A stretch of 64,000 nt of DNA, taken from a virus. Its lineage: Duplodnaviria > Caudoviricetes. Made by a program: the position numbers and the translations under genes. Below the pieces are notes generated by a model. The model searched no databases, was not told the origin of the DNA, and saw nothing but the letters and a program-made list of their open reading frames with translations. The stretch is from the IMG/VR virus record IMGVR_UViG_3300044712_000264, positions 1,023 to 65,022 of that record, one strand, 5' to 3'. Positions 1,756-53,865 of this stretch are shown piece after piece (position 1 is the stretch's first letter; every line of letters begins with the position of its first letter).

Positions 1756-2021
1756 TTGCACACCGCCCAATTCCCGCGCTATACTTACGGTGCCTCGAAA
1801 GAGGTCGGATGTGCAAGTCCGGTGAGACGCGGCAAAAAGCCGCACCCCGCAAGGTCTGCGGCTTTTTCAATTCTGGTCACCAGTTATGGCGGCCCGGATG
1901 GGAGGGTCCAGGCCCTGCCGGTCGCGCTCCGCGTCTCCCGGTCTTGCACACCCATTCGGGCTGCCGCCAAATGTGCAAGTTTGTCGGCAGTTGTTCCACA
2001 GAGACGACTGGAGATGCCATC
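1756..2021 (+). promoter_or_regulatory. c4/ash-type riboregulatory cassette 1 (promoter, a1/b1 targets, terminator, c4 RNA, a2/b2 targets)
   Basis: TTGCAC-18-TATACT; hairpin CGGA-TGTGCAAG-TCCG; GAGACGCGG; terminator AAAAAGCCGCA..TGCGGCTTTTT; downstream TGTGCAAG and GAGACGACTGGAG overlapping the SD. Confidence 0.8.
1887..1969 (+). ncRNA. c4-like antisense RNA 1 (seed CTTGCACA / CCGCGTCTC)
   Basis: Cloverleaf closed by TGGCGGCCCGGATGGG/CCCATTCGGGCTGCCGCCA with loops complementary to the flanking a/b sites. Confidence 0.75.
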
Positions 2022-2474
2022 ATGGCTAAAACAAACTTCGACCTCATTCGAGGTGACTTCCCCGATTCGTGTATTACTGGCAACGGAATTCCTGATGACG
2101 ACGGATACTTACGAATCGGAATTGGTAGCAAAAAAGAGTGCAAAAGGTATTACCTGCACCGCCTCGTATTTCGTGCATTCGTTGGCGAAATACCAGCCAA
2201 GCATGTTGTCATGCACACCTGCGATAACCCGGGATGTATCAACCCGAAGCATCTCAAAGTTGGCACGCACGACGACAACATGCTCGACATGGTTGAAAAA
2301 CGTCGCCACCAGTGGGGACAGGATCACTACAAAGCGAAACTCACAGAAACCCAAGTCAGGGAAATTCGGGAAGACAAGCGACTTCACAAAGAAATCGCTG
2401 CCGAATACGGGATTGTCCGATCAACTGTCTCCAACATCCGCGCAAAACGGATTTGGAAACACTTGGAGGATTAA
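2022..2474 (+). CDS. HNH endonuclease with C-terminal HTH
   Basis: YLHRLVF...VVMHTCDNPGCINPKHLKVGTHDDNM; AKLTETQVREIR tail; GGAG SD before ATG 2022. Confidence 0.85.
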   Translation: MAKTNFDLIRGDFPDSCITGNGIPDDDGYLRIGIGSKKECKRYYLHRLVFRAFVGEIPAKHVVMHTCDNPGCINPKHLKVGTHDDNMLDMVEKRRHQWGQDHYKAKLTETQVREIREDKRLHKEIAAEYGIVRSTVSNIRAKRIWKHLED

Positions 2475-2478
2475 GATC

Positions 2479-3054
2479 ATGTCGCAATCCGTCATCACCA
2501 TCGGTGATTTTTCCGTTCGTCAACACGACGGCCTTTTCTCTCTAAATGATCTTCATAAAGCTGCTGGCGGAGAACTTCGCCATCGCCCAGTCGAATTCAT
2601 ACGACTTGAGCAAACACGGGCGCTTTTGAATGAATTGCAAAAAGGTGGGGATCACCACCTTTTCACGAATACGGTAAAAGGCCGAAACGGTGGAACTTAC
2701 GTTTGCCGTGAACTGGTAATCGCTTACGCGGCCTGGATCAGCGCGGCGTTTCACCTCAAAGTCATTCGGGTGTTTCTCAACGCCAAAGCACACCCCCAGG
2801 TCGCAGCAACCCCCGCACCACCAAAGCGCAACGTGATTCGCTGCAAAGTCGAGTCCGTCTCCGTCACCATGCGCTTGACCAGCGGCGGCGTGGGCTTCGG
2901 CATCCGACTCCAGGGCGACCACTACAACATGCACCGCTTCACACCCGGCGAGTCCATCGAACTCGAATACGCACAAGGCGCAACTCCCCTGGCTGATTTG
3001 CCTATAGGCGTGAACAGGATCGCACAACCAGGCAGGAAGGCCGCTACAGCATGA
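2479..3054 (+). CDS. KilA-N domain antirepressor-like protein
   Basis: VRQHDGLFSLNDLHKAAGG...GGTYVCRELVIAYAAWISAAFHLKVIRVF is KilA-N; GGAGG SD before ATG 2479. Confidence 0.85.
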   Translation: MSQSVITIGDFSVRQHDGLFSLNDLHKAAGGELRHRPVEFIRLEQTRALLNELQKGGDHHLFTNTVKGRNGGTYVCRELVIAYAAWISAAFHLKVIRVFLNAKAHPQVAATPAPPKRNVIRCKVESVSVTMRLTSGGVGFGIRLQGDHYNMHRFTPGESIELEYAQGATPLADLPIGVNRIAQPGRKAATA

Positions 3055-3153
3055 TTTTCAACCCGGCTAGGTTCGCTACCGAAAAGCGGCTACTCCACCC
3101 GCCTGCCGGGGTGTTCTATGTGGGGGGACTATTGTTTTCTGGAGAAAAACAGT

Positions 3154-4077
3154 ATGCGTGATTACGGGAAAGTCCATACGTCATTTTGGACAAGCCCAAA
3201 CATTAGAGCGCTTTCAGATGATGGCCGTGCGCTGGCAATATATTTGTTGACATGCCCACACGGGACCATTGCCGGGGTATTCAGACTGCCAGATGGATAC
3301 GCTTGTGATGACTTGCAATGGGATTCTAAAAGGATAAAAAAAACCCTTTCGGAACTGTTGGCGAACGGTTTCGCAACCCGTTGCGAAGCTACAAAATGGG
3401 TATGGGTAACGAAACATTTCGTATGGAATCCACCAGAAAACCCAAATCAAAAAAAATCTGCATTAAAGGTTGTCATGCAAATTCCAGACGAGTGTTCATG
3501 GAAGGCTGATTTCATTGGTAAATGTGGCATTTATTTCGGAATTGATCCGTCCAAATCAGAACACTTGCGAAACCCTTCTGAAACCCTTCCAGAACCCTTG
3601 CCTAATCAGGAACAGGAACAGGATATAAACATCCTTACGTCCGTAGCCGACGGAATTTTGTCGCCGGACAAGCCGACGACCGCAGTGGAGCAAGCAACTG
3701 CCGATCAATCGACAAAGGCAAATACCTCACCTGCACCACGATTTCCGCCTTGCCCAGCTGAGCAAATCGTCGAGCTGTACCGGGAGGCGTTGCCGGAACT
3801 CCCCAACGTCCGGGTCATGGTTGACGACCGCAAACGTGCCATCAAAAAACGCTGGGAATGGGTGCTGTCGAGCACCAGACCAGACGGAAGCCGCCGGGCA
3901 GAAAACGCACAACAGGCGGTTGACTGGTTCCGGGATTTCTTCGAGTTGGCCCGAGAAAACGATTTCCTCATGGGCAGAACTCCCAAAGCAACCGGGCACA
4001 AAGGATGGACATGCGACATTGATTTTTTGATGACTGACAAAGGTTTGACGCAAGTTTTAGAAAAGGCAACAGCATGA
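3154..4077 (+). CDS. Replication initiator (lambda O-like)
   Basis: MRDYGKVHTSFWTS..ALAIYLLTCPH N-terminal wHTH type; QEQEQ linker; WTCDIDFLM C-terminus; directly upstream of DnaB. Confidence 0.8.
   Translation: MRDYGKVHTSFWTSPNIRALSDDGRALAIYLLTCPHGTIAGVFRLPDGYACDDLQWDSKRIKKTLSELLANGFATRCEATKWVWVTKHFVWNPPENPNQKKSALKVVMQIPDECSWKADFIGKCGIYFGIDPSKSEHLRNPSETLPEPLPNQEQEQDINILTSVADGILSPDKPTTAVEQATADQSTKANTSPAPRFPPCPAEQIVELYREALPELPNVRVMVDDRKRAIKKRWEWVLSSTRPDGSRRAENAQQAVDWFRDFFELARENDFLMGRTPKATGHKGWTCDIDFLMTDKGLTQVLEKATA
3558..3625 (+). repeat. Iteron-like 11-bp-periodic repeats (putative origin inside initiator gene)
   Basis: GAACACTT / GAAACCCTT / GAAACCCTT / GAACCCTT at ~11-bp spacing followed by (CAGGAA)n. 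Confidence 0.55.
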
Positions 4078-5408
4078 ATCAAGAGATTTGCAACCTTGAA
4101 GCCGAAAACGCGCTTATTGGCGGGCTGCTGTTAGACAACCGTGCATTTGATTTGATCGACGAAAGCCTCAAGCCTGAGCATTTTTCCAACGAGTTGACTC
4201 GCATGGTTTTTGCAGAAATTGCACGGCAAATTTCCTCCGGGAAACTGTGTGACCCCGTTACCGTTTTTCATGCCATGGAAAACCGGATTTCAATGCAAAA
4301 ACTAAACGAGTTCCCGCAGTACATGCCAAGCGCTTCCAGCATCCGGCGCTACGCAGGGATCGTAATTGAGCGCGCAAAGAGCCGGTCTCTTTTGTCGGTA
4401 AGCGCGGAAATTTCCGGTTTTGCACATGACCATAGCCGATCAATAGCAGAACGCATCGAGTCAGCTCAAGGACAGCTTGTGAAGCTCATGGACGAAGCGC
4501 CACGCGATGAGTGGGTGAGCGCTTATGACGGTATGGTCCAGCACACGCAAACCCTGGATGACAGGGCGGATGGAAAGGTTAAAGCGTGGGCGACTGGGCT
4601 TGTCGATGTTGATGACTACCTTGAAGGTGGATTGCGCCCTGGCGAGCTTGTGATTATTGGCGCGCGCCCAAGTATGGGGAAAACAGCGCTGGCCATGACT
4701 ATCGGCCTGAACATGGCCCGCGATCATGTGGTTTCCATGCTTTCGATGGAGATGCCACACAGCGAACTGCGCGACCGTCAAATTGCAATTTTGGGTGGTG
4801 TGAGCTTGTCAGATGTGAAACGACCTAGCAAAAACGGCCTGAACTGGGAGAGAGTTTCGCATGGGATTGATTGTGCAAAAAGGCTTAACTTTTACGCATC
4901 AGACCAAGGCGGATTGAACATCAACCAAGTGCGCAGCAAGGCCAGGAACATAAAGCGATTGCATGGGCTGCATGTGTTGATCGTGGATTACATCGGCCTG
5001 ATGTCTGGAATTGACTCAAAGCAAAGCCGGGTCTATCAACTGGAAGAAATCAGCCGTGGCCTCAAAACGCTCGCCAAAGAGCTTGGAATCTCCGTTGTGT
5101 GCCTTGCACAGCTTAATCGCAAAGTTGAAGAGCGGACAGATTCGACTCCACAGCTTGGGGACTTCCGCGACTCTGGCGCGATTGAGCAAGACGCAGACAC
5201 CGTGATTTTTGTTCATCGTCCAATCCAGGCGAAACCGGACATGGGGCCAGAGTGGACAAACTACGCCAAGGCCAGCATTGCGAAAAATAGAAATGGTCGC
5301 TGCGGTGTTGTCAACCTGTTTTATCAAGGCTCGCAAACAAAGTTTGGATCGTGGTCCGGACCTGCACCGTCATCCACAACATCAACAGTCAAAGGGAGGA
5401 ATTTGTAA
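4074..5408 (+). CDS. dnaB: Replicative DNA helicase, DnaB family
   Basis: IGARPSMGKT Walker A, IVDYIGL, LAQLNR, DFRDSGAIEQDAD, IAKNRNG. Confidence 0.95.
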   Translation: MNQEICNLEAENALIGGLLLDNRAFDLIDESLKPEHFSNELTRMVFAEIARQISSGKLCDPVTVFHAMENRISMQKLNEFPQYMPSASSIRRYAGIVIERAKSRSLLSVSAEISGFAHDHSRSIAERIESAQGQLVKLMDEAPRDEWVSAYDGMVQHTQTLDDRADGKVKAWATGLVDVDDYLEGGLRPGELVIIGARPSMGKTALAMTIGLNMARDHVVSMLSMEMPHSELRDRQIAILGGVSLSDVKRPSKNGLNWERVSHGIDCAKRLNFYASDQGGLNINQVRSKARNIKRLHGLHVLIVDYIGLMSGIDSKQSRVYQLEEISRGLKTLAKELGISVVCLAQLNRKVEERTDSTPQLGDFRDSGAIEQDADTVIFVHRPIQAKPDMGPEWTNYAKASIAKNRNGRCGVVNLFYQGSQTKFGSWSGPAPSSTTSTVKGRNL

Positions 5409-5638
5409 TGTCTGAATCTTCTGTTGATCTTACAAACCAATGGGTATTGCTGTGGAGTCAAAAGCAAAACGCCCTGCACGTTGAAACGCTTCCAGAAACA
5501 TTGGCCATCAATCGACGCGCATGTATCCACAACAAGCCAGGAGATTACCGGGTATTGATGATTGGAAGCCATGAAGATGTATCTGCTACATCGCGGTCCT
5601 TTGTGCAAATGCTCCAACAACGTCGGAGCGCAGCATGA
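5408..5638 (+). CDS. Hypothetical protein
   Basis: ATG overlaps dnaB stop, GGAGG SD. Confidence 0.6.
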   Translation: MSESSVDLTNQWVLLWSQKQNALHVETLPETLAINRRACIHNKPGDYRVLMIGSHEDVSATSRSFVQMLQQRRSAA

Positions 5639-6081
5639 ACAAGTGGGACGCAATCCGAGAGTTTTACCGCATCAACCTGCCAAAGATCATGGCTGAAAAG
5701 CGCAACGAGTGGGGAATTGATCCTTACGCATGGGATGAAGGAAAAGGCATCATTTTTTTTACGCCGATTGAGCAATGGCTGTGGCACGACATTCGTGCGG
5801 TAGATGTTGTGCTTTATCCGCAATTTCCAATTGGCAAATTCTTTGTTGATTTTGCAAATCCAGTCGCAAAAGTCGCCATCGAATGTGATGGACAGGCGTT
5901 TCATCTCGACAAAGAAAAAGACGCAAAACGTGATGCGGGGCTACGTGAAGCTGGATGGCACGTTTACCGCATAAGTGGCAGCGATTGCCGCAGAGACTTT
6001 GACGAAGAAACGATGACCAGCAGCGTTGCACACAATTTCATTACCGACATTGCCCGTACTCATGGGATTGCCAGGGCGTGA
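5635..6081 (+). CDS. DUF559/Vsr-like endonuclease
   Basis: PQFPIGKFFVDFA...VAIECDGQAFH...RDAGLREAGWHVYRISG. Confidence 0.85.
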   Translation: MNKWDAIREFYRINLPKIMAEKRNEWGIDPYAWDEGKGIIFFTPIEQWLWHDIRAVDVVLYPQFPIGKFFVDFANPVAKVAIECDGQAFHLDKEKDAKRDAGLREAGWHVYRISGSDCRRDFDEETMTSSVAHNFITDIARTHGIARA

Positions 6082-6377
6082 CTATCGAATGCCAATCATG
6101 CCAACACGCCAACAACACGCCCATCAGCGGCCAGTACAACGTCAATTGCATCCAGTGCATGGCGCGAATGATCGTCAACGCACGCCCGAGCAAGGCGATG
6201 CAGGAGCGCCAGATTGCGTTTCTGCAACGTCATCACAAAAACGCTTGGCTTGATCTGTGGCCACAAATCCAAAACCAACTCAAACAGAGGAACAACACCA
6301 ATGCACCACCCATACCCGGACCCACAAGTCCATCCCTCCCCGCACAGCCGGGCACATCCGCAACACGCCAGCGCTGA
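6078..6377 (+). CDS. Hypothetical Cys-rich protein
   Basis: Two CxxC pairs; GTGA overlap with upstream stop. Confidence 0.55.
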   Translation: MTIECQSCQHANNTPISGQYNVNCIQCMARMIVNARPSKAMQERQIAFLQRHHKNAWLDLWPQIQNQLKQRNNTNAPPIPGPTSPSLPAQPGTSATRQR

Positions 6378-6482
6378 CGAAAAAGCCAGTTTGCTAAACC
6401 GCTACTGCGGCCCAGGGCAGACTGACTGCCCGGTGTTGAGCGATGAATACGACATGGAAGTCGGGCTGGCGGGAGCGCTGCA

Positions 6483-6662
6483 ATGATCGAGCAGGACGAC
6501 CTCCGCGATCTGACGATGGCAATTGTCCTTGGCGGCATCATGGCAAAAGTGGCTCACTCGGCTATGCCCCCCAGCAGCATACATGCCGCTGTCTCGCTCG
6601 CCATGCAAGTTGCTGACGTGGCAATGCAAGAGCGGTACAAGCAGGCTGAGGTTGTGGAATGA
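6483..6662 (+). CDS. Small hypothetical protein
   Basis: MIEQDDLRDLTMAIVLGGIM..., ATGA-coupled at both ends; below ORF-track cutoff. Confidence 0.5.
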   Translation: MIEQDDLRDLTMAIVLGGIMAKVAHSAMPPSSIHAAVSLAMQVADVAMQERYKQAEVVE

Positions 6663-7015
6663 ACTGCACTCTCACACTCCCTTGGCCACCAAAACAGCTC
6701 TCGCCTAATGCCCGCATCCATTGGGCGACTCGCGCAAGGCATGCTAAAGGCTATAAATCGGCTTGCTATGCCATCACAAAGAGTGCCGGGCTACTACCCC
6801 CTTGCCCCACAGGGGAAATCGCTCTGAGGCTTGATTTTTTCGCACCTACTCGACGCAAGAGGGACTTAGACAACTTGCTTGCCAGCATGAAGGCTGGTCT
6901 TGATGGTGTGGCGTGGGCGCTGGGCGTTGACGATTCGCGGTTCACATTCGCTATCGCGCTGGCGGATGAGGTTGGTGGATTCGTAAAACTGCACATTGGA
7001 GATTCTGAACAATGA
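6659..7015 (+). CDS. rusA: RusA-like Holliday junction resolvase
   Basis: LTLPWPP..LSPN; RRKRDLDNLLASMKAGLDG..LGVDDSRF. Confidence 0.8.
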   Translation: MNCTLTLPWPPKQLSPNARIHWATRARHAKGYKSACYAITKSAGLLPPCPTGEIALRLDFFAPTRRKRDLDNLLASMKAGLDGVAWALGVDDSRFTFAIALADEVGGFVKLHIGDSEQ

Positions 7016-7476
7016 ACATCAACATCCAACAACTTCACACTAACGCCAAAGTTCCAACTTACGCACATCACGGCGATGCCTGCTTTGATCTTTACGCGGC
7101 CACTGTAGACGGGAATACGCACATCGGAAAGATCGTCTATGAAGGCGCGCCGGTTGTGTGTGGCACCGGATGGTCTTTCGAGATCCCGGCAGACCATGCC
7201 ATGCTCGTATTCAGCCGCAGCGGGCACGGGTTCAATTACGACCTTCGGCTGGCCAATTGCGTGGGCATCGTGGACGCTGGATACCGGGGAGAAGTAATGG
7301 TGAAGCTCACCTGCGATGCGCCGGATGATGATGTATCGCCGCCCTACAAAATCAATCCGGGTGATCGCATAGCCCAGGCAATGATTATCCCTGTTGAGCG
7401 CGTTTCGTTTGATGTGGTGGATGAGCTGTCAGAAACGGAGCGTGGGGATGGCGGGCTTGGGAGTTCTGGGCTATGA
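7012..7476 (+). CDS. dut: dUTPase (trimeric)
   Basis: ACFDL, SRSG, GIVDAGYRGEV, GDRIAQ, RGDGGLGSSG motifs. Confidence 0.95.
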   Translation: MNINIQQLHTNAKVPTYAHHGDACFDLYAATVDGNTHIGKIVYEGAPVVCGTGWSFEIPADHAMLVFSRSGHGFNYDLRLANCVGIVDAGYRGEVMVKLTCDAPDDDVSPPYKINPGDRIAQAMIIPVERVSFDVVDELSETERGDGGLGSSGL

Positions 7477-7617
7477 CGCCACCAGTTGAAAAGTACGGCT
7501 GTTTTAATCGCCCGCCAATCGTCACATTCGGCCAGCAGGATTGTCAATTTACACGGACCTGGCTTGGCATGCACGACCCGAAGTGCGAAGGCTGCAAACA
7601 CAAGGAGCAAAGAACTG

Positions 7618-7962
7618 ATGGACAAAACACCGAAACTCACGAACCAGCTCGTATTTGAGTGCATCCAGGATTTGCACAATCGAGAGAAGCCAGCAACACG
7701 GGAGCACCTGGCGTCTCGCTTCGGCGTGGCACTGATGGTTGTGGACCATCACATCAAGCAGCTGCTTTCGTCGGACAGGATTGTCAAAATCAAATCTGGC
7801 GTGTACACACCAGCGTTTGTCGAGCCTCAGTCACGCCCAGTCAGCACGACTTTTCTCAACAACGGATTTATCAAGCTCGAAATCGGGGATGACGTGTTGC
7901 AGCTCACGCCGAGTGAGAGCAAGAAGGTTGCCCTTGCTATGGCTGGGTTGGTGGCTGTGTAA
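7618..7962 (+). CDS. Winged-helix protein, candidate late-gene activator
   Basis: ATREHLASRFGVALMVVDHHIKQLLSSDRIVKIKSGVY wHTH-like; last early gene before the first late promoter. Confidence 0.55.
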   Translation: MDKTPKLTNQLVFECIQDLHNREKPATREHLASRFGVALMVVDHHIKQLLSSDRIVKIKSGVYTPAFVEPQSRPVSTTFLNNGFIKLEIGDDVLQLTPSESKKVALAMAGLVAV

Positions 7963-7966
7963 TTTA

Positions 7967-8001
7967 CAGAGTTTGACTAGACGCTTGACGCTGCGCAATA
8001 T
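7967..8001 (+). promoter_or_regulatory. Late promoter 1 (terS, leaderless)
   Basis: CAGAGT-TTGACT-17-CAATAT, ATG 8 nt later. Confidence 0.65.
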
Positions 8002-8009
8002 TCGCAGCT

Positions 8010-8678
8010 ATGGAAAAAGCAGCGCCAAGGAAAAAGCGTAAGACAGACTGGGACGCGGTAGAGCGAGATTACCGTACGGGGAAATTCACAAGTCGTGAAC
8101 TGGCTGAAAAATATCAGGTGAGTTTCAGCCTGATAGCCCGGAACGCCAAGAAGCACGGATGGACTCAAGACCTAGCTACTGCTATTCGACAAGCTACCAA
8201 CGCAAAGTTAATTGACGATCTTGTAAGCCGAGAAGTTCACGGAACTTCACAAAAAGTACACAACACAATCGAGGCCGCAGCCGATGTAAATGTCGGAGTA
8301 ATCCTCGGGCATCGAGTCGGCCTAAAGCGAATCACAACAATCAAAGAGCTGCTGCTAGACCAGGTTGAGCAAGCAACCATAAACATGGTTGACCTGGCCG
8401 ATGTGATCGAGATGGTGCGAAACCCGGACGAAAACGGGATTGATCGGGCGAATGATGCGCTCAAGAAAGCAATGGGTCGCAGTGCATTGGTGGATGATCT
8501 CAAGAAGCTGACCGATGTGGATGAAAAGGTTCGCAAAGGTGAGCGAGAGGCGTTCAGTATTGACAGCACACCCCCTGCCGAAGCCGATGCGTTCACGACG
8601 CTACTGCTCAAAATCAGCACAGGCAACAGTTCATCATTCCAGCCAGTGCAGCAAGACCCTGCGCACGACGAGGACTGA
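8010..8678 (+). CDS. terS: Terminase small subunit
   Basis: DWDAVERDYRTG..S.RELAEKY HTH; directly upstream of terL. Confidence 0.8.
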   Translation: MEKAAPRKKRKTDWDAVERDYRTGKFTSRELAEKYQVSFSLIARNAKKHGWTQDLATAIRQATNAKLIDDLVSREVHGTSQKVHNTIEAAADVNVGVILGHRVGLKRITTIKELLLDQVEQATINMVDLADVIEMVRNPDENGIDRANDALKKAMGRSALVDDLKKLTDVDEKVRKGEREAFSIDSTPPAEADAFTTLLLKISTGNSSSFQPVQQDPAHDED

Positions 8679-8680
8679 CC

Positions 8681-12512: not shown

Positions 12513-12540
12513 TTGGGCCTTATTTCACAAAGGTCAAACC

Positions 12541-13458: not shown

Positions 13459-13469
13459 TCCTCAATTTG

Positions 13470-43481: not shown

Positions 43482-43650
43482 TATGGACCCCGCACTAATC
43501 ACCTACATCTGTATCACCACAGTTGCACTAATCGTGGCGTTCCCAAGGTTTTGATATGCACGCCAAGCCCCACAGCACAGCGTACCGGGCTGCAAATGCC
43601 GTTGTTCTGCTGTGGTGGACGGCAATTGTGTTTATTGCAAGGAGGACACC

Positions 43651-44725: not shown

Positions 44726-44746
44726 AAATCCCGCTACCTGAGCGGG
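44724..44746. terminator. Terminator between convergent lysis and moron genes
   Basis: AAAAAT-CCCGCT-ACCTG-AGCGGG. Confidence 0.5.
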
Positions 44747-44753
44747 CGTGGTT

Positions 44754-46494: not shown

Positions 46495-46747
46495 GATTTA
46501 CTCTTGTCAACAGGTTGTAAACCTGCCGCCAACGCTTCCAACGTTGGTGACAGACCGTGTGGGCGTTGGAAGACCGGGACAAGGACCGGCGCATCTTGCG
46601 ATGCCACCCACACAGCCCGTCATAACTGAGCATGTGTGTTGCGCATTAAAAAAGCAGCTAACCGTTACGGCGCTGCTTGTCGTTGCGCCTTGTCTTTTGG
46701 GCTTCCACACCCAGGCGCGATTGTAGCGTAGACTTTTTCATCTGCAA
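46495..46747 (-). promoter_or_regulatory. c4/ash-type cassette 2
   Basis: TTGCAG-16-TACAAT; a1 GGG-TGTGGAAG-CCC, b1 GACAAGG, terminator AAGCAGC..GCTGCTTTTTT, a2 ACG-TTGGAAG-CGT, b2 GACAAGAG. Confidence 0.8.
46548..46623 (-). ncRNA. c4-like antisense RNA 2 (seed CTTCCAAC / CCTTGTC)
   Basis: TGACGGGCTGTGTGGG..CCCACACGGTCTGTCA stem, GCATC-GCAA-GATGC arm, loops complementary to a/b sites. Confidence 0.75.
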
Positions 46748-47121
46748 GGGTATGCTTTTACCATGGCTGTGTAAACGAACATCGCGCCGCCTTGGTCGGT
46801 TGCAGGGAAAGCGGATATGTCTGAGTTGCGCAGTGTTTGGTACAGGTTGAAACTCACGACAAAATTATCGGGGCGACCGTCTTTCCCCATCGGAGGGCAA
46901 ATCGCCCGAGGTGCCAGGCCCAAATCCTGTACTGTCAGCACCGCAGACAGCATGCCACCAGATATAGACATGATCTCCAGCAACGTACTGACACCGATAA
47001 GAAGATTGACATTTTGCGCCGACCGCTTCAAATATGCAGGAGTGTATAAATCATCTGCGTGTGCCGATGTTGCCATAGACACAGTCAATGCCGCAGACAT
47101 AATGATGGGTAACAGTTTCAT
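46738..47121 (-). CDS. Exported protein, Rap1a/Tai immunity-like moron
   Basis: Sec signal (..SAHA|D), internal ICPP, C-terminal AMVKAYPC. Confidence 0.6.
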   Translation of the reverse strand: MKLLPIIMSAALTVSMATSAHADDLYTPAYLKRSAQNVNLLIGVSTLLEIMSISGGMLSAVLTVQDLGLAPRAICPPMGKDGRPDNFVVSFNLYQTLRNSDISAFPATDQGGAMFVYTAMVKAYPCR

Positions 47122-47374
47122 GGTTTACCTTTCAGGTGGTTGTTGTAAAAAAGCAGGCTAACCTATGGCCTGCGGCGAAACTTGCCAATGCTTGCAATGT
47201 CTACGCTTTGGGGCGTAGACATCCATAGGAAGAAAAGTTATTGTTTCGCTGAAAACTTTCCATAAGTTGCGCCCCACAAACAGAAAACCCGCCAGGGTGC
47301 GCTTACATGTAGAGGCGGGGCGGGTGTTGTTGGGGGGATTGTAAAACTGGTAAAACCACGAGTTTTCCGCTGTT

Positions 47375-47612
47375 TATGGCATTGAACATGGTATTCAGTA
47401 GGTTAGAACGTTGATTTATAACGTTTTCTGGCTCCCCCCTGCTCCGCCAGTATCAATCCAAGACAATCCACAAAAGCCCCATACTGTCTAAGTATCGGGG
47501 CTTTTCCATTGGGCGGACGGTGCATAATAGTCCCAGCTAATCCATAGCGATACCACGCAAGCCACGATACAAACATGGTACCCGTCGTGGTATCCACCGG
47601 GACAATACCATG
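47375..47612. mobile_element. attP: tRNA-3'-like core with flanking arm-type repeats
   Basis: Core TCCCCCCTGCTCCGCCA (47433-47449); 12-bp-periodic (C/T)ATGG(C/T)A repeats at 47375-47395 and 47573-47594; IHF-like AATCAACGTTCTA on the minus strand. Confidence 0.75.
47472..47505 (+). terminator. Intrinsic terminator after att core
   Basis: AAAAGCCCC..GGGGCTTTT. Confidence 0.75.
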
Positions 47613-48770
47613 ACCTTGACTGTGCGCACCATTGACGCTGCAAAACCTCGTGAAAAAGGCTACAAGCTGGCCGACGGTGCCGGGCTGTACCTCTACGTGG
47701 CACCAACAGGCGTAAAAAGCTGGCGTGCAAACTACACACGGGCAGGGAAACAAGCCACGCGCACCTATGGCCGGATGCCGGATATGACACTGGCCGACGC
47801 ACGCAAGGCACACGCAGCTGCGCGCGATACCACGACGGATGCCCTTGCCAAGGCTCCGAAGTTTGAAGCCGTGGCGCGTGACTGGCTAAAAATCAAGCTG
47901 CCGACGCTTTCAAATTCCAAACACCAGATACAGGTTGAGAACACCCTGGAGCGGTTTGTTTTCCCGGCCATCGGTGCCAGACCGATTGACACACTGCGCC
48001 GTGCTGATCTTGTTGCGTGCGTCCAAGCGGTGCAGGCCGGAGGGCAGATTGAAACGGCGCACCGGGTTGCCGGGCGCATAGCGGCTGTGCTTGACTACGC
48101 CCAGGATTCTGGTTTGATCGAAACGCATCCAGCCAGCGGCCTGGCGCGTGTGCTGCAATCGCGCAAAGTCAAAAAGCCAATGGCCAGCATACCGCCAGAA
48201 GAAACCGGCGCACTGTTGCGCGCCATCGCCGACTATGACGAACCCGTTACCAGGCTTGGATTGCAACTGCTGGCCCATGTGTTTGTCCGGGTTGGCGAAT
48301 TGCGCGGTATGAAATGGGATGAATTGCGCGAAGGTAGCGCAGTGTGGGTGGTCCCTGAAGAGCGCATGAAGCTGCGCCTACCACATGTTGTCCCATTATC
48401 AGCGCCTGCACAGTGTTTGCTGGAGTCGCTGCGCGTCATAAATGGCGATCGTGAGTATGTGTTTGATTCGCCTATTCGCCCAGGGCACCCGATCTCGGAA
48501 AACACATTTTTGTTTGCGCTCTACCGACTCGGATACCGTGGGCGCATGACTGCCCACGGATTCCGTGCGCTTGCCAGCACTGTTCTCAATGAACAATCTG
48601 ACTTTGCGCACGATGTTATTGAGCGGCAGCTGGCGCACAAAGAGACTGACGCGGTACGAGCTGCATACAACCGGGCAGAATATCTCGATGCACGCCGCGA
48701 TCTCATGACGTGGTGGAGTGATTGGCTGGCTGCGCAAACCGATGCAAATCAGAAACCCGCCAGCGGGTAA
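47610..48770 (+). CDS. int: Tyrosine integrase (P4-like)
   Basis: YKLADGAGLYL arm-binding domain; R (VRVGEL), HGFR, LAH, AYNR catalytic residues. Confidence 0.95.
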   Translation: MTLTVRTIDAAKPREKGYKLADGAGLYLYVAPTGVKSWRANYTRAGKQATRTYGRMPDMTLADARKAHAAARDTTTDALAKAPKFEAVARDWLKIKLPTLSNSKHQIQVENTLERFVFPAIGARPIDTLRRADLVACVQAVQAGGQIETAHRVAGRIAAVLDYAQDSGLIETHPASGLARVLQSRKVKKPMASIPPEETGALLRAIADYDEPVTRLGLQLLAHVFVRVGELRGMKWDELREGSAVWVVPEERMKLRLPHVVPLSAPAQCLLESLRVINGDREYVFDSPIRPGHPISENTFLFALYRLGYRGRMTAHGFRALASTVLNEQSDFAHDVIERQLAHKETDAVRAAYNRAEYLDARRDLMTWWSDWLAAQTDANQKPASG

Positions 48771-48897
48771 TGCCGCCGATTTTGACGGGTTGCGGCAGAT
48801 TCCCTTTTGCTACCTCTCGCCAAAATGTTGATTTCCCCATACTCAGAAGCGTTGCAGCTTCTGCCGCCGGGATAAGTATCTTTTCGTTCATATTCAT
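48703..48897 (-). CDS. AlpA-family excisionase/RDF
   Basis: AAEAATLLSMGKSTFWREVAKGNLPQPVKIGGITRWRVSDL; convergent overlap with int. Confidence 0.85.
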   Translation of the reverse strand: MNMNEKILIPAAEAATLLSMGKSTFWREVAKGNLPQPVKIGGITRWRVSDLHRFAQPANHSTTS

Positions 48898-48907
48898 TTC
48901 CAAAAAC

Positions 48908-48933
48908 AAAAACCCCGCTGCTTGAGCGGGGTT
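48908..48933 (-). terminator. Intrinsic terminator
   Basis: AACCCCGCT..AGCGGGGTT with T-run on the minus strand. Confidence 0.65.
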
Positions 48934-49015
48934 GGTGGTGATTGCCCTGGTGTATTTCAACCCAAGCGCGGCGGACCTTGCGGCTAAGTTGGGGTAGGCG
49001 GCATGGGCTGTTAAG

Positions 49016-49282
49016 TCACACGCGAATGCATTCCTTGGCTTTGTCGGTGAGGTACACCAGCCCGTCACGTTCATAGAAAAATCCGCCAGTGTCGTCAAGA
49101 GCCTTTGAACCCTCTCGATGATCCCCTGGTCCGTTACGGCCAATAGTCATTACCCTCCAGTAATAGTCGTCCTTGAACAGGCCCCGAGGTACTCCGTCGT
49201 CTAGTGTTCGTGCGTTCTGCACAAACAACAGCAGCTCGGATTCTGTTTCTGATGATCCTGTAAAAATACCTTTGTAGTCCAT
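49016..49282 (-). CDS. Hypothetical protein
   Basis: AAGGA SD, 88 aa. Confidence 0.55.
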   Translation of the reverse strand: MDYKGIFTGSSETESELLLFVQNARTLDDGVPRGLFKDDYYWRVMTIGRNGPGDHREGSKALDDTGGFFYERDGLVYLTDKAKECIRV

Positions 49283-49291
49283 GTAAATTCC

Positions 49292-49474
49292 TTAATGCCT
49301 GTGATTCGAGCGCGTCGGGATTGTCCCCCGGCGCTCCATGTTGCGCAGGGTCTGCGGCGTGCATGTGTACCGTGCGCACATCTCTTCGGTTGACAGCCAC
49401 GGCGACAGGCTGGCAATCAGGCGCTCAACTTCCATGCTAAGGCGGCGCACTTCCAATATCGCTGCTTCGGTCAT
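49292..49474 (-). CDS. Excisionase-like HTH protein, possibly truncated
   Basis: WLSTEEMCARYTCTPQTLRNMERRGTIP stops before a typical wing. Confidence 0.55.
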   Translation of the reverse strand: MTEAAILEVRRLSMEVERLIASLSPWLSTEEMCARYTCTPQTLRNMERRGTIPTRSNHRH

Positions 49475-50058
49475 TTAACCCCCTTGTGCCCATCGTTGCC
49501 CAGCGTCTTCTTGAAGCCCACATTCCCAGCGGTGTGGAACACAACCAAGCCCTCTGGCTTCATAAATCCGGGCGCTGCCACGCTTCCAGCAGCCTGAAGG
49601 TAGTTCATCCACATATCCACGGTGTTCGTGTCAAACGTGCATCTGTCTAACACCGGCACAAGTCCGCAACAAGGCGGCAAGAAGTCTTGTGTGCGTGTGA
49701 CTCGCGGGTCCATAGTAGGGTACGTTTTAGGTTCTGTGCCATGAAGCGCCCAGCGTTGCACATTGAACAGGCTGAACCGTTTTTCTTTCAGCCCGTAATT
49801 GCGCTGGATGCCTTGACCCCACCACTCGCCGAAGTGACGACCTGGCCCAAGAGTTAGCAGTTCGTCCCTGTGCGCTTCGGCCCATTTTGCAAAGCCATGA
49901 TTGTCATCTGTTGTGGTGATCCAGCGTGTGCGGCTCCCGATAAACATGGTTTTCCCATCATCGCTGATGTAAATCTGTGCATTCGTGCCGTCTATTTTTT
50001 CGGTGATTATCACTTCACGGGACAATCGCGCCATCTTAGGAAATTCTCTAAATTCCAT
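49471..50058 (-). CDS. RNA ligase (Rnl2-like nucleotidyltransferase)
   Basis: ITEKIDGTNA (motif I), GSRTR, FGEWWG, SLFN, PEGLVV, FKK. Confidence 0.85.
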   Translation of the reverse strand: MEFREFPKMARLSREVIITEKIDGTNAQIYISDDGKTMFIGSRTRWITTTDDNHGFAKWAEAHRDELLTLGPGRHFGEWWGQGIQRNYGLKEKRFSLFNVQRWALHGTEPKTYPTMDPRVTRTQDFLPPCCGLVPVLDRCTFDTNTVDMWMNYLQAAGSVAAPGFMKPEGLVVFHTAGNVGFKKTLGNDGHKGVK

Positions 50059-50086
50059 TGTTTAATCCTTTGTTTGTCTTTGTTCG

Positions 50087-50611
50087 TTACATTGCCAAAA
50101 TAGACCTCAGTGGCCGTGGTGTGTAATTCCGCGAGCTGTCCGGCGCAGGCCTGTACACCTCATACGGATGATGAACCCCGTAGGTAATGCGCACCTCTCG
50201 CCCGCCGATCTCAGCCACCATTTCATTCACGTTCGGCTTCCGATCTGGTATCACAAACGTTTCCATTCGGTGTAGCTGCTGTGGTGTGGCCACCTTGAGC
50301 GCCTGCATCTGCCTTGCTGGCGGAAAGTCCAAGTTCTGTAGCAGCATGCGCCCTCTATCAGTGATCGCGTACAAGTGCATTGCCCGTGTGCGTATCTTGT
50401 GCGCCGGATTTTGATTTGCCATTTGGCGCATCACCGCCCTGGTAGTGCATATGTATTCGCAGCGCTTTAGCGAGTTGATGCATTCTTTCGCATCGAATCC
50501 AAGTTCCGCGTTTACGTCATGCAACCCCGCCTCTCCTAGTTTTCTTATCGCCCGCAGCGTGGCTTCGTTCTTTTTGATTAGCTTGGCTATCCGTGTCAAT
50601 CCCCCAGCCAA
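50087..50611 (-). CDS. Hypothetical wHTH-like protein
   Basis: ORF in coupled operon; YAITDRG wing-like segment. Confidence 0.5.
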   Translation of the reverse strand: MAGGLTRIAKLIKKNEATLRAIRKLGEAGLHDVNAELGFDAKECINSLKRCEYICTTRAVMRQMANQNPAHKIRTRAMHLYAITDRGRMLLQNLDFPPARQMQALKVATPQQLHRMETFVIPDRKPNVNEMVAEIGGREVRITYGVHHPYEVYRPAPDSSRNYTPRPLRSILAM

Positions 50612-50907
50612 TACTCAATCGCCCGCACCGGCTCCATTTCTAGCTGCGTGGCAATGTGCATCTCCAGAATCGACAGCCTTGAGTCGTGCGCGCCCTTCAG
50701 CACAGCAAGACCGCTGCACTGCATCATCTCGGCTATGTTGACGCGCATACGTAGCTGCCACGGTGCGTCAATCTCAATGCCATTCTCAAGTGGATTGAAA
50801 ACGTCAAAGCCAGCACCTCGCAAGGCACTTGCGGCGTCATTGAATGCCGTTTTGTTGTATCCAGGTATGCCCGTTATTGGGCCGCAAAGGTAAAGTCGTT
50901 TTTTCAT
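50596..50907 (-). CDS. DUF4406/nucleoside deoxyribosyltransferase-like protein
   Basis: LYLCGPITG..N..AF..AA..LR..G..VFNP; S..LE. Confidence 0.8.
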   Translation of the reverse strand: MKKRLYLCGPITGIPGYNKTAFNDAASALRGAGFDVFNPLENGIEIDAPWQLRMRVNIAEMMQCSGLAVLKGAHDSRLSILEMHIATQLEMEPVRAIEYWLGD

Positions 50908-50911
50908 TTTG

Positions 50912-51123
50912 TCACCTCGTTGTTTGCTTTTTGATTTCCCGCCTGCAATTCTGGCATGTCACGCCCCCGGCTGGCTGTTCGTAGTCGATATACCACCGGC
51001 CATCATCAATGTCGCCACGGCCACATAACAGACCTTTGTTGGTAGCTGCGTGGACCATTAAATGCAGCTCGTTTCCGTGCTTGTGCTTGCATCGCCGGAC
51101 GAAAAAAATGATTGATCCGTCAT
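50912..51123 (-). pseudogene. Zn-finger-like ORF split by a frameshift at a T7 run
   Basis: ATGA-coupled start MTDQSFF; one extra T joins it to VRRCKH..VHAA..LCG..VTCQNC. Confidence 0.4.
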
Positions 51124-51326
51124 TGTTTACCCGTAGATTTGCAGGTTATGGTTAGTGTGCGCAGGTTCCCGTCGTCTACCCTGCGCACGGTGAATGTTTC
51201 TGCGGAGCAAGTGCTTGCCATGGCTCTAAAAGACATGTTTGCATCGTGGTATGACGTGTCGCATGCGGTCATCAATATGGTGGCTGACAGAAGAATCAAT
51301 GGCCGCATATATGCGCGGCGTATCAT
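51120..51326 (-). CDS. Small lipoprotein
   Basis: Hydrophobic N-terminus with MTAC lipobox-like motif. Confidence 0.5.
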   Translation of the reverse strand: MIRRAYMRPLILLSATILMTACDTSYHDANMSFRAMASTCSAETFTVRRVDDGNLRTLTITCKSTGKQ

Positions 51327-51751
51327 TGCTCATTCTCCGCAGATTGCAACAGTTCGACCACCTTCTCAGACCAGCCTTTTCCATCGACAAAGAATGCATT
51401 GCCTGCTTCGGTTGGTGTTCCAACAGCATCAACAAACCCCATGCTGCACAAGCGTTTTTGTGCAGTTTGCCAATTCGTTTTCATTCTGTGCCCAATCTGT
51501 CCAACGGATAGATACTTTTCTTCTGTCACAGGCGCTGGCGCTTTGACTTGGAACAGCTCAAGCACGTTGATGCCTGTGATAACAGCTACAGCGCGGTTTG
51601 CGCCCTGGATCGCCGCGTCCTTGTCCAGTCCAAGAGATACCGCAGCTTGTATCGCCTGTGGTATTAGCTTGATTGCGTCGATCCGTCGCTCGTATTCGGT
51701 TTTGGTGAGTTGGCCAGCGATGGCTTCGGTGATTGTTTTGGGTTGTGTCAT
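51323..51751 (-). CDS. Antirepressor C-terminal-like protein
   Basis: ANRAVAVITGINVL..YLSVGQIG..PTEAG..WSEKV. Confidence 0.55.
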   Translation of the reverse strand: MTQPKTITEAIAGQLTKTEYERRIDAIKLIPQAIQAAVSLGLDKDAAIQGANRAVAVITGINVLELFQVKAPAPVTEEKYLSVGQIGHRMKTNWQTAQKRLCSMGFVDAVGTPTEAGNAFFVDGKGWSEKVVELLQSAENEQ

Positions 51752-51765
51752 GGTGTTGTGGTAAT

Positions 51766-51790
51766 AAAAAACCCGCTGTTGGAGCGGGTT
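51766..51790 (-). terminator. Intrinsic terminator
   Basis: AACCCGCT..AGCGGGTT plus T-run. Confidence 0.65.
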
Positions 51791-51808
51791 GGGTGGGGTG
51801 TGAGTTGG

Positions 51809-52084
51809 TTATCCCTGCAAACGATGCCTGGTCACATTCGCAACAGCAGGAAACGGACTCGCAACCGTGGTTATCCGTTCAACCGTCGGCTCCAAAAAAT
51901 TGCTGTGCTCGTTGCCGGTGATCTTCAAATAGTCGCTTTCCACCCTTGCTGTGTCCACCAGCACACTAGCCACACTGGCCACTGCTTTGGCGCGTTCGAT
52001 GTCCATCGGTGTTTCTTTGTTTCGCAAATCTGCAAGTGTGTCCAGCAGCGACTGGCGTACTTGGTCAATGTGGGGATTTGTCAT
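51809..52084 (-). CDS. Hypothetical protein (HNH-adjacent)
   Basis: MDIERAKAVASVASVLVDTARVE; AAGGA SD. Confidence 0.65.
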   Translation of the reverse strand: MTNPHIDQVRQSLLDTLADLRNKETPMDIERAKAVASVASVLVDTARVESDYLKITGNEHSNFLEPTVERITTVASPFPAVANVTRHRLQG

Positions 52085-52548
52085 GCGGTTTCCTTTTTGA
52101 TGCGGTTGACTTGGCGCATGATTGCGCCTTTGAGTTGATAAAGTTTTCCAAGTTCGGTGTTTCTCCATACGCTGTTACGGCGCATGTTTTCGTGCCTTGT
52201 GATGCACTCCAGTCTGTCTGCCGTGACTTCTTCTTCCGCTACGGTTTTCATGCCTCTACGAAACACAACAATGTGGCCATCAGGGATGGGGCCGTGTGCT
52301 GCTTGCCACACAAGCCGGTGTACTGGCGTCCAGCGGCGCGTAGTCGGCAGCGATTGGTCATCGGTCATCTTGCGTTCCAGGTAGCCGTCTTTGCTGATGC
52401 GCAGCGTGCCGATTGGCACATAGTTGTGCTGCGCCGCTCCAGACATGTGCCCTTTCTTGAAGCGGGTTTCGTGGCTACGTCCACCAGAGTCGAAATTGAT
52501 TCCTTTGTTCCATGGTGTCTGGCCTGGTTTGAATGATGTTTTGTTCAT
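52081..52548 (-). CDS. HNH endonuclease with FKxG repeats
   Basis: FKPGQTPWNKG, FKKG, VHRLVWQAAHGPIPDGHIVVF..LECITRHENMRRN. Confidence 0.8.
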   Translation of the reverse strand: MNKTSFKPGQTPWNKGINFDSGGRSHETRFKKGHMSGAAQHNYVPIGTLRISKDGYLERKMTDDQSLPTTRRWTPVHRLVWQAAHGPIPDGHIVVFRRGMKTVAEEEVTADRLECITRHENMRRNSVWRNTELGKLYQLKGAIMRQVNRIKKETA

Positions 52549-52557
52549 TTTGGGCAA

Positions 52558-52580
52558 TAAAAAGCCCGCATCAGCGGGCC
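52558..52580 (-). terminator. Intrinsic terminator after antA
   Basis: GCCCGC-TGAT-GCGGGC-TTTTT. Confidence 0.65.
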
Positions 52581-52607
52581 ATTGGTTGGTTACAGAAACA
52601 GGGGGTT

Positions 52608-53564
52608 TCAGTTCGTTATGCGCTGCATCCTTTGGGCCAGTCTGCTGTTGCAGGCGGCTGCAAGTATTGCCAGTTCGTGGTTACTCACCAGCATGTCACC
52701 TTCGCGCCCAATGGCAACAGCCAGCTTCTGCACTGGCATTGCAATAGCGTCTGTCTCTAACTGTTCAGCGTGTGGCTTCACGACAGTATCGTCACGGCCA
52801 TCAGCCATGAACGAAAGCAGCCAGCGCTCATTCCTCCAGCTTTTACCTGCTTGCAGCAGCGTCTTGAACATGGTCTCTTGCACTTTTGCTGCTACCTGGT
52901 TGGAAGCCTCCAATGCTTGATAAATTTTGTCCTGGTTTGTTGGTGTATCGGGTGCTGGCAAGGTTGGAACCTCATTTGGTAAGTGTTTCTGAATCAAGGT
53001 GGCAATGCTCTGGTCGTCAAGCTTGCCTTGCAGGTAGGCCACGGCGTCGGCAAACTTAGACGGGTGCAGCAGCTCATATTTGTTGCATCCCATCTTGCGC
53101 TGGAATCGCGTCCAGGTGCTCGGGTAGTCCTGCTTGCCACTGGCGACGATCAAATCGACCAGCTCTTTCAGGTGCTGCTTCTGCGCCGGGCTTATGCGGT
53201 CGTAGGGCAACTTACAAGGAATGCTTGACAGTTGCACCTGTTTTTCACAAGCGATGAAGTAACGCCGGGCTTCGCGCCCTTTGTCGTTGTTTTCCACCAT
53301 CGCCAGCTCTTTGGCCATGTCCAGGGTCAGGTGGTAATCAATTGCAGCGCCGCGATTGCCGCTCGCCAATTCGGGCGAGCGGGAAATGCTCAGAAAATCC
53401 ACACCTTCCACAAACTTGAATTTTTTGATGCGGCCTTTGATCCAGTTTGAGAAGTCGCGCAACACTTCCATAAAGGTGTGCAGCGTGCGAGCGTCGCAAA
53501 GTTGAACGGATTGATCGTTGAGAGTCCCAGTAAAAACGGGGACGAGTGCGAGAGTTTCAGCCAT
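52608..53564 (-). CDS. AntA/AntB-family antirepressor
   Basis: DARTLHTFMEV.RDFSNWIKGRI..F.EG.DF..DYHLTLDMAKELAMVE..GREARRYFI.CE; GGAGG SD. Confidence 0.88.
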   Translation of the reverse strand: MAETLALVPVFTGTLNDQSVQLCDARTLHTFMEVLRDFSNWIKGRIKKFKFVEGVDFLSISRSPELASGNRGAAIDYHLTLDMAKELAMVENNDKGREARRYFIACEKQVQLSSIPCKLPYDRISPAQKQHLKELVDLIVASGKQDYPSTWTRFQRKMGCNKYELLHPSKFADAVAYLQGKLDDQSIATLIQKHLPNEVPTLPAPDTPTNQDKIYQALEASNQVAAKVQETMFKTLLQAGKSWRNERWLLSFMADGRDDTVVKPHAEQLETDAIAMPVQKLAVAIGREGDMLVSNHELAILAAACNSRLAQRMQRITN

Positions 53565-53865
53565 GATTGGCCTCCAGTTGTGTCGGTTTGAAAACCGCAC
53601 ACCCGCTTTCAATCGGGTGGCGACTTGAACAGGGTTGAAAGACCGGGACACTGGCGGAGGCCATTAACCGGCGGGCTTGCGCCCCCCTATTCAAGCCACC
53701 ATAAACTGGGGCACGAACAAAAAAGCCGCAAACCTTTGCGGTGATGCGGCTTTGCGCCGCCAGCGTCTTCAGGCTTTCAATCCCGGCCCCTGTTTTTTGC
53801 AGTGACTGGCCCCGGCGCGATCGCTGGAGCGTTCGAGCATTGTAGCGCGTAATTTCATTTTGCAT
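53565..53865 (-). promoter_or_regulatory. c4/ash-type cassette 3
   Basis: -10 TACAAT; a1 CGGG-ATTGAAAG-CCTG, b1 ACGCTGGCGG, terminator AAAGCCGCA..TGCGGCTTTTTT, a2 CCG-ATTGAAAG-CGG, b2 ACTGGAGG. Confidence 0.8.
53618..53702 (-). ncRNA. c4-like antisense RNA 3 (seed CTTTCAA / CCGCCAGTGT)
   Basis: TGGTGGCTTGAATAGGG..CCCTGTTCAAGTCGCCA stem, GGGC-GCAA-GCCC arm. Confidence 0.75.

Follow-up and report, generated by a model that had tools for sequence, protein, structure and literature searches.

We analysed a 64,000-nucleotide stretch of the viral record IMGVR_UViG_3300044712_000264 (Duplodnaviria; Caudoviricetes), hereafter the window, in which three cassettes, K1, K2 and K3, each place a C4-type antisense RNA directly upstream of a gene start. 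The record is 65,022 bases long, has terminal repeats and is rated 100% complete, and the window corresponds to its bases 1023-65022. C4 RNAs were identified with the Rfam covariance model RF01695 at its gathering score of 45 bits. Exactly three full-model matches (positions 1-87 of 87) were found, with E-values of 2.8e-7 to 7.9e-10 over the whole window, and the full 65,022-base record likewise gave three. A permissive Rfam search of the whole window revealed no fourth or degenerate C4. A preliminary description of this DNA, made without database searches, had placed three C4/CI-type switches at 1756-2021 (+), 46495-46747 (-) and 53565-53865 (-). The coordinates, the strands and the -10 boxes that it gave are correct, and the three matches above 45 bits identify the cassettes as genuine members of the C4/CI type.

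The cassettes follow one plan (Table 1): an a1 hairpin, b1, an intrinsic terminator, the C4 RNA, a2, and then b2 at the ribosome-binding site. The common architecture proposed in the preliminary description was thus recovered in all its parts (a1, b1, hairpin with U run, C4, a2 and b2), except that b2 of K2 lies only partly over the Shine-Dalgarno sequence. Both the cmscan structure and independent minimum-free-energy folds show the C4 RNAs as a long closing stem with two hairpins; in all three, a' is single-stranded in the junction and b' lies in the loop of the second hairpin. 5' AUGG or AUGA and 3' CCA-like tails can be read in their sequences. The three RNAs are 55-62% identical to one another, and their best identities to RNAs of unrelated contigs are 67-68%. 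Being no closer to each other than to the RNAs of unrelated contigs, they are not recent internal duplicates.

The leaders fold into the a1 hairpin followed by a hairpin with a U run, and the terminator of the K3 leader is supported by both the terminator scan and the fold. An anti-terminator, in which the 3' part of b1 would sequester the terminator's 5' arm in K1 and K3, was considered and rejected because the free leaders form the terminator in both minimum-energy and centroid structures.

Table 1 Features of the three C4 cassettes, of the genes that they precede and of the switch, replication and integration genes, in window coordinates
Feature	Position	Strand	Basis
K1 promoter-like site (TGCACA, 17-nt spacer, TATACT)	1757..1785	(+)	consensus match alone, 9/12
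K1 leader, a1 TGTGCAAG (1810-1817, hairpin loop) and b1 GAGACGCGG (1824-1832)	1806..1832	(+)	
K1 leader intrinsic terminator	1834..1868	(+)	terminator scan, fold, isrK match 1792-1868
K1 C4 antisense RNA	1882..1971	(+)	RF01695, 52.6 bits; fold -48.8 kcal/mol, three-way junction
K1 a2 (1972-1979) and b2 (2000-2018, covering the GGAG Shine-Dalgarno)	1972..2021	(+)	
K1 first gated gene, HNH endonuclease, 150 amino acids (aa)	2022..2474	(+)	Pfam HNH_3, 6e-14; phrog_59
K1 second gated gene, KilA-N protein, 191 aa	2479..3054	(+)	Pfam KilA-N, 4e-20; phrog_129/2812
K2 putative promoter (TTGCAG ... TACAAT)	46720..46747	(-)	read from sequence
K2 leader, a1 TGTGGAAG (46709-46702), b1 GACAAGG (46694-46688), hairpin and U run	46648..46709	(-)	
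K2 C4 antisense RNA	46543..46627	(-)	RF01695, 61.9 bits; fold -46.3 kcal/mol
K2 a2 GTTGGAAG (46542-46535) and b2 GACAAG (46508-46503)	46495..46542	(-)	
K2 gated gene, Bro-N antirepressor, 383 aa	45343..46494	(-)	Pfam Bro-N, 5.3e-23; phrog_130 (anti-repressor Ant), 9.5e-59
K3 putative promoter (-10 box TACAAT, 53844-53839)	53839..53865	(-)	read from sequence
K3 leader, extra 5' hairpin, a1 TTGAAAG (53780-53774), b1 CTGGCGG (53763-53757), intrinsic terminator	53719..53819	(-)	
K3 C4 antisense RNA, 21-nt b' loop	53613..53706	(-)	RF01695, 62.9 bits; fold -49.4 kcal/mol
K3 a2 (53612-53606) and b2 CTGGAGGCCA (53577-53568, including the Shine-Dalgarno)	53565..53612	(-)	
K3 gated gene, AntA-family antirepressor, 318 aa	52608..53564	(-)	Pfam AntA, 5.2e-24; phrog_5817 (anti-repressor Ant)
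CI-like primary repressor, helix-turn-helix and S24/UmuD-like peptidase	1..666	(-)	phrog_4, 2.9e-36; phrog_811
Promoter-like site near the cro-like gene	661-688		consensus scan
Cro-like small repressor, divergent from the cI-like gene	695..937	(+)	phrog_35, 2.9e-7
Replication initiator (O/DnaD-like) and DnaB helicase	3154..5408	(+)	phrog_1701/5810/345; Pfam DnaB, DnaB_C
Tyrosine integrase	47610..48770	(+)	Pfam Phage_int_M, Arm-DNA-bind_3, Phage_integrase

The three seed sets named in the preliminary description are all present, one in each cassette, and each C4 RNA carries complements of its own. Perfect runs to the cassette's own a1 and a2 measure 8 and 8 nucleotides (nt) in K1, 6 and 8 in K2, and 7 and 7 in K3; those to its own b1 and b2 measure 9 and 6, 7 and 6, and 7 and 8 nt, respectively, so that a1 and b1 of K1 are perfect 8-nt and 9-nt complements of a' and b'. 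Cognate runs are thus 6-9 nt long at all 12 sites, and runs against the other two cassettes do not exceed 6 nt. When the whole genome was searched for an a-site with a matching b-site within 70 nt, such pairs were found inside the cassettes and nowhere else. Duplex energies, which ignore target structure and kinetics, gave the same picture when summed over a2 and b2: -26.5 (K1), -20.3 (K2) and -29.5 (K3) kcal/mol for the cognate pairs and -6.2 to -15.2 kcal/mol for the six non-cognate pairs. The RNAs therefore match their own targets best when both sites are combined. The orthogonality claimed for them at the outset is supported at this combined level and not, in its strict form, at single sites, where a' of K3 is predicted to cross-pair with a2 of K2 and b' of K1 with b1 of K3.

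The b' duplexes of K1-K3 lie 3-8 nt ahead of the start codons. In K1 the duplex (-18.2 kcal/mol) ends 3 nt ahead of the ATG at 2022; in K3 it is stronger (-24.0 kcal/mol), covers GGAGG and also ends 3 nt before the ATG. The K2 duplex is short (-7.1 kcal/mol), stops 7 nt short of the ATG and overlaps a weak AAGAG Shine-Dalgarno sequence only in part. The 21-nt loop of K3 holds a block complementary to GGAGGCCA, which the preliminary description did not include. The first gated open reading frame (ORF) is the HNH gene in K1 and the antirepressor itself in K2 and K3. Pfam confirmed the HNH_3, KilA-N, Bro-N and AntA domains that had been proposed for these genes; the KilAC portion assigned to the K2 gene found no support, as nothing in the genome matches Pfam ANT (PF03374, the 'KilAC' domain). 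There is one match genome-wide to each of Bro-N, KilA-N and AntA, and all three lie directly behind a C4. Each cassette precedes a gene of an antirepressor family.

We consider it likely, with a probability of roughly 80%, that this phage has three C4/CI/IsrK-type switches, independent of one another. Each cassette would be transcribed from its own promoter. The leader would present a1 in a hairpin loop, followed by b1 and the intrinsic terminator, and on account of this terminator most transcripts are proposed to stop as a short, IsrK-like a1/b1 RNA. The read-through transcript would carry the C4 RNA of about 85-90 nt, which, by analogy with P1, would be excised by RNase P. Its single-stranded a' junction would then pair with a2, which immediately follows the RNA on the 3' side, and its b' loop with b2 at the Shine-Dalgarno sequence; the position of b2 points to a translational block, which would shut off the first ORF and probably, by polarity, the later genes too. 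The short a1/b1 leader could titrate the C4 RNA, as IsrK in Gifsy-1, and so open the switch. Since every cassette has its own two-part address, each RNA would mainly control its own gene. In a lysogen, the three antirepressor-type proteins would be kept silent, and the same cassettes would be silenced in a superinfecting copy of the phage. The RNA family, the architecture, the matched addresses and the gene families are direct results of the analysis. Transcription, processing and repression are inferred from family membership, the matched sites and the precedents of P1, P4 and IsrK, and the targets of the three proteins are inferred as well.

Several observations weigh against this interpretation. 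The leaders match the isrK model (RF01394, cut-off 50 bits) with 24.8 (K1), 25.9 (K2) and 42.8 (K3) bits, all below the cut-off. With the c4-a1b1 model (RF03163, cut-off 46.7 bits), K1 gives no match, K2 13 bits and K3 24.3 bits. The Infernal search with Rfam models suggested in the preliminary description therefore returned C4 above the cut-off three times and c4-a1b1 below it. The matches that were obtained have the correct position and strand; the leaders resemble both families and would work like them, and they are not filed as members of either. A consensus scan found no good -35 box for K2 or K3 and flagged the K1 promoter alone. The b2 match of K2 is only 6 nt long and touches only a weak Shine-Dalgarno sequence. 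None of the three cassettes has a small icd-like ORF between b2 and the gated gene. Among the sequencing runs listed as containing the stretch there was no RNA run, and one DNA run, possibly the source of the record, contains it. At the level of single sites, a' of K2 and a' of K3 are one base apart, and a' of K3 is predicted to form 8 base pairs, including one G-U, with a2 of K2 (-8.5 kcal/mol, compared with -5.8 kcal/mol at the K3 RNA's own site); likewise, b' of K1 is predicted to pair with b1 of K3 at -21.0 kcal/mol, compared with -17.0 kcal/mol for the own site. Finally, the CI-like repressor carries an S24 peptidase domain of its own, and the need for an antirepressor is not obvious. Given this cleavage domain, the repressors of other prophages are as plausible a target of the gated proteins as the phage's own.

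The mechanism is of a known kind, and nothing in the cassettes calls for a new one. In circuits of the P1 type, RNase P trims the c4 precursor to roughly 77 nt, and a small icd ORF is translationally coupled to the antirepressor gene; in P1, a block of icd translation silences ant through Rho-dependent polarity. The immI regions of P1 and P7 (c4, icd, ant1/ant2) share with the present cassettes the RNA family (68.8 bits for P1 and 69.6 for P7, compared with 52.6-62.9 here), the a1/b1 sites upstream and a2/b2 sites downstream of the RNA, the placement of b2 at the ribosome-binding site and the antirepressor behind it. They differ in that the present phage lacks the icd-like small ORF and has an intrinsic terminator between b1 and the RNA. 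P1 and P7 are moreover plasmid prophages with a C1 repressor and one cassette each, whereas the present phage is of the integrating CI/Cro type and has three.

The closest precedents are described in print. RNase P processing and a'/b' targeting have been reported for the c4 RNAs of P1 and P7 (PMC5320573; PMC12197685), a review summarises c4 and IsrK (PMC12197685), and c4 and c4-a1b1 were tabulated by Weinberg et al. 2010 (PMC2864571). In Gifsy-1, IsrK is a SeqA-like leader, and a second RNA, processed from further downstream, and a gene resembling an antirepressor accompany it (IsrK/STnc1160/orf45-anrP; PMC4825925). The lambdoid setting is shared with the present phage, and so is the plan: a short leader RNA stops at an intrinsic terminator, transcripts that pass it give a processed RNA with complementarity to the leader, and the gene resembling an antirepressor follows; the present leaders, however, fall below the 50 bits of isrK and no orf45-like small ORF is present. 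The CI RNA of satellite phage P4, with seqA, seqB and seqC, controls replication genes by premature termination (PMC4825925). There, too, the sites flank the RNA in an untranslated leader, and K1, like CI, lies upstream of replication genes; the difference is that P4 acts by premature termination whereas b2 here sits on the Shine-Dalgarno sequence.

Genomes with several C4 cassettes, each with its own a/b seeds, are also on record. They include RCS47, JL22, D6, the D6-like plasmid prophage pYU39_89, which has a second c4-icd region (PMC6799933), and the IMG/VR records G299 and G307; extra icd-ant or ant insertions have been described in P1-like plasmids (PMC6906374). These P1- and D6-like elements reside as plasmid prophages in enterobacteria, and the Ant/Icd genes that their copies gate are related, whereas the present phage is lambdoid and integrating, and its gated genes come from three domain families. 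A single Acinetobacter baumannii genome encodes a large C4-like RNA family in which a' varies; its Group 1 RNAs differ in a', are expressed and are apparently processed at a GGW site (PMC5320573). Those RNAs are spread over the chromosome, in contrast to the present ones with their cis-linked targets and gene. In the literature searched, accounts of multiple c4 in one phage or genome were limited to the D6-like second region, the P1-like icd-ant insertions and the A. baumannii family, and no paper was found that considers multiple address-specific C4 switches of a single phage together as a system.

We compared the cassettes with 35 C4 cassettes from other viral records, which together with K1-K3 gave a set of 38; the pattern used for seeding favours the consensus. 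In the other records, a 7-nt complement of the a' seed was present at a1 in 34 of 35 cassettes and at a2 in 30 of 35, and the b' loop usually had 5-10-nt complements on both sides. Across the 38 cassettes, the cognate score averaged 13.1, compared with 8.45 for the 1406 non-cognate pairs. Thirteen distinct a heptamers occur in this set, and the b loops are much more varied. The a seed of K2 (TTCCAAC type) recurs in 5 of the 35 other cassettes; those of K1 and K3 are unique among the 38. AntA homologues of at most 60% identity had an above-cut-off C4 directly upstream at 5 of 18 viral loci. At one AntA-homologue locus c4-a1b1, isrK and C4 all exceeded their cut-offs, a co-occurrence that links the C4 cassette with the isrK-type leader.

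The preliminary description regarded C4-type control as one locus per phage and built its claim of novelty on that premise. The copy numbers found in our samples, which are small and pattern- or homology-seeded, contradict it. With two C4-core patterns as seeds we collected 97 viral records, of which 42 contain a C4, above the cut-off in 41. Adding one C4-positive terminase relative gave 43 C4-positive records, of which 5 have two above-cut-off copies; four more pattern-seeded records have a weaker second copy, and none has three. Where two copies are present, they have different seeds or a common a seed with different b. In G095, G134, G109 and G100, the strong C4 is preceded on the same strand, at a distance of 0.2-2.3 kb, by a weaker C4-like match (23.6-41.7 bits), which may represent a tandem or decayed cassette.

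We also sampled 11 cultured P1/D6-like phages, picked by similarity to the extra cassette of RCS47. Six of them, P1 and P7 included, carry a single copy; two copies are present in RCS47, JL22, 673R5 and Ro157c2YLVW, and D6 gives three C4 matches, two of them above the cut-off. Higher numbers were seen in P1-like records (25 of 80 loci, a biased sample chosen for length or several ant copies): a single copy is present in 2, two copies in 17, three in 3, four in 2 and five in 1, always above the cut-off, so that 6 of the 25 have 3-5 copies. Where a genome has four or five, every copy has a distinct a/b combination. With the one-per-phage premise gone, the main novelty claim of the preliminary description is unsupported.

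The survey of related phages that it had suggested gave a divided answer: multiple copies with their own seeds occur in P1-like records, and the relatives by terminase are almost devoid of C4. This sample comprised 42 of 80 loci returned, with a large terminase of at least 67% identity, picked by length or closeness. No C4 was found in 41 of these 42 (G051-G092), and the remaining one has a single C4, gating a Bro-N gene. We conclude from this distribution that the cassettes belong to a swapped-in early region rather than to the structural lineage. Megablast detected no cultured relatives of 1600-9000 and merely 33-nt matches for 45000-55000, and a distant BLAST with each cassette and its gene as query recovered nothing but short pieces of the coding parts.

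Integrase relatives at about 70% identity are from Thiomonas, Variovorax (a partial match) and unclassified Proteobacteria bins, and one at 59% is from Undibacterium; these relatives weakly suggest a Burkholderiales host. Of 151 Burkholderiales genomes, in each of which up to 27 candidates were scored, 15 had C4 matches, with at least 27 in one. Pairs of C4 on the same contig within 70 kb occurred in five genomes, and no triple was seen. These genomes include G261, G231 and G283, of which one has at least 27 matches, and probably more, and the others 12 and 9, spread over many contigs; they recall the large C4-like RNA family of A. baumannii.

By its gene content, the phage is temperate and has a lambda-like layout with a CI/Cro switch and an integrase. 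The 249-aa ORF of the CI-like repressor extends with its 3' end beyond the left edge of the window, and the tyrosine integrase, 1.1 kb away from K2, marks an integrating temperate phage. Rightward from the switch, the order is cro-like, HNH, a small ORF, K1, HNH, KilA-N, an int-alpA RNA motif, the O/DnaD-like initiator (start 3154 read from the sequence) and DnaB, followed by RusA, dUTPase and terminase genes. K1 thus lies within the rightward early operon, between the cro-like gene and the replication genes, with the initiator and DnaB genes directly downstream of the K1 operon, a placement absent from the preliminary description. The succession of KilA-N and replication genes after K1 recalls the gene order ant, kilA, repL of P1.

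This placement suggests a different role for K1, which we think rather unlikely: a gate on the operon that runs from cro to the replication genes, providing P4-like RNA immunity in place of an antirepressor lock. The leader terminator would be tR1-like, and the C4 RNA would keep HNH, KilA-N and, by polarity, the initiator and DnaB off in the lysogen. The gene order from the cI-like gene to DnaB, with the same strand from the cro-like gene onward and short gaps, is as such a gate would have it, just a weak terminator-like site (3096-3113) separates the KilA-N and initiator genes, and the P4 CI RNA offers a precedent for control of replication genes by premature termination (PMC4825925). K1 nevertheless has its own promoter-like site and targets of the same kind as K2 and K3, b2 falling on the Shine-Dalgarno sequence that serves the first ORF. 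The gate would also require K1 transcripts to run on into the replication genes, and the fold test for an anti-terminator in the leader was negative. A possible, if doubtful, alternative is that the C4 RNAs are themselves the useful product: a lysogen would make three different antisense RNAs that silence the antirepressors of incoming phages sharing any of the three addresses, while its own antirepressors would wake heteroimmune resident prophages; the cassettes would then be a kit for defence and offence rather than a control of the phage's own induction. Shared addresses do exist, as the K2 a seed demonstrates, heteroimmunity of P1 and P7 hinges on a few bases in the a and b elements (PMC5320573; PMC12197685), and Salmonella antirepressors act on the repressors of other prophages (PMC3121763). 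A CI-like repressor with an S24 domain may, in addition, not need antirepressors for self-induction. Against this stand the uniqueness of the K1 and K3 a seeds and the finding that no sampled cassette shares both a and b seeds with K1, K2 or K3.

The single-site cross-pairings could instead indicate that the switches are wired together in a hierarchy or cascade, the K3 RNA acting on K2 as well and the K1 RNA on the K3 leader. The near-identity of the K2 and K3 a' sequences and the two duplexes that are stronger than the own-site pairings invite this idea, and we hold it to be improbable: with both sites combined the cognate RNA wins by 5-20 kcal/mol, and b' of K3 binds b2 of K2 weakly (-3.5 kcal/mol), on energies that ignore target structure and kinetics. 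It is more improbable still that at least one cassette is an inactive passenger, either a remnant or a module carried along with HNH homing-type genes. The three HNH genes that adjoin K1 and K3 would fit such a history, as would acquisition as modules, with which the 55-62% identity of the C4 RNAs and the rarity of C4 in terminase relatives are consistent; yet every part of every cassette is intact and fits its partners, and the gated ORFs are uninterrupted and have full domains. Three independent switches, each mainly controlling its own gene, remain the preferred interpretation.

Read in this way, the window adds an integrating phage of the CI/Cro type to the enterobacterial P1-like plasmid prophages as a setting of stacked, address-specific C4 switches, and one phage applies a single RNA device to three antirepressor families, KilA-N, Bro-N and AntA. 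The specific interest of the case is the lambdoid, non-enterobacterial setting, the three families, the C4-poor structural relatives and the position of K1 ahead of replication genes. The cassettes supply three natural RNA lock-and-key pairs, compact and seemingly specific, that are suited to a cross-repression test, and the layout around K1 permits C4 gating of a lambdoid replication operon to be tested. A broader view, which we regard as speculative and improbable, is that C4 is a general two-part address system, composed of a short a seed and a highly variable b loop, that diverse temperate phages collect as interchangeable modules; in this phage, K1 at a tR1-like position would make an antisense RNA decide, besides CI, on access to the replication genes. 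If true, this would amount to P4-style RNA immunity grafted onto a lambdoid phage.

Several minor features lie near the cassettes. Just upstream of the K1 promoter, 1656-1749 (+) forms a 94-nt imperfect inverted repeat with three exact copies of GTTGCACC (two direct, one inverted; 1667-1738) within 72 bp; this region could be a protein-binding region. Window-wide, GTTGCACC is not enriched (72 matches, 85 expected). A CI operator at the cassette promoters was also considered and rejected: the palindrome at 660-672, at the cI/cro promoter, has no match at any of them, and at up to 2 mismatches its matches (52, compared with 52.5 expected) show no enrichment. The int-alpA motif (RF02996; 3060-3126 (+), 51 bits, cut-off 35.8) between the KilA-N and initiator genes is not followed by an integrase or alpA gene, and the G-rich 3' tail of the motif stops about 28 nt short of the likely initiator start at 3154.

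Three HNH endonuclease genes, at 941-1441 (+), 2022-2474 (+) and 52081-52557 (-), adjoin K1, one upstream and one downstream, and K3, one just past the AntA gene, and may bear on cassette mobility. The leftward early region between K2 and K3 also contains an RNA ligase family gene (49471-50058 (-)) and a DUF4406 / nucleoside deoxyribosyltransferase-like gene (50596-50907 (-)). In the tail-gene region, 31692-42809 (+) is one ORF of 3705 aa.

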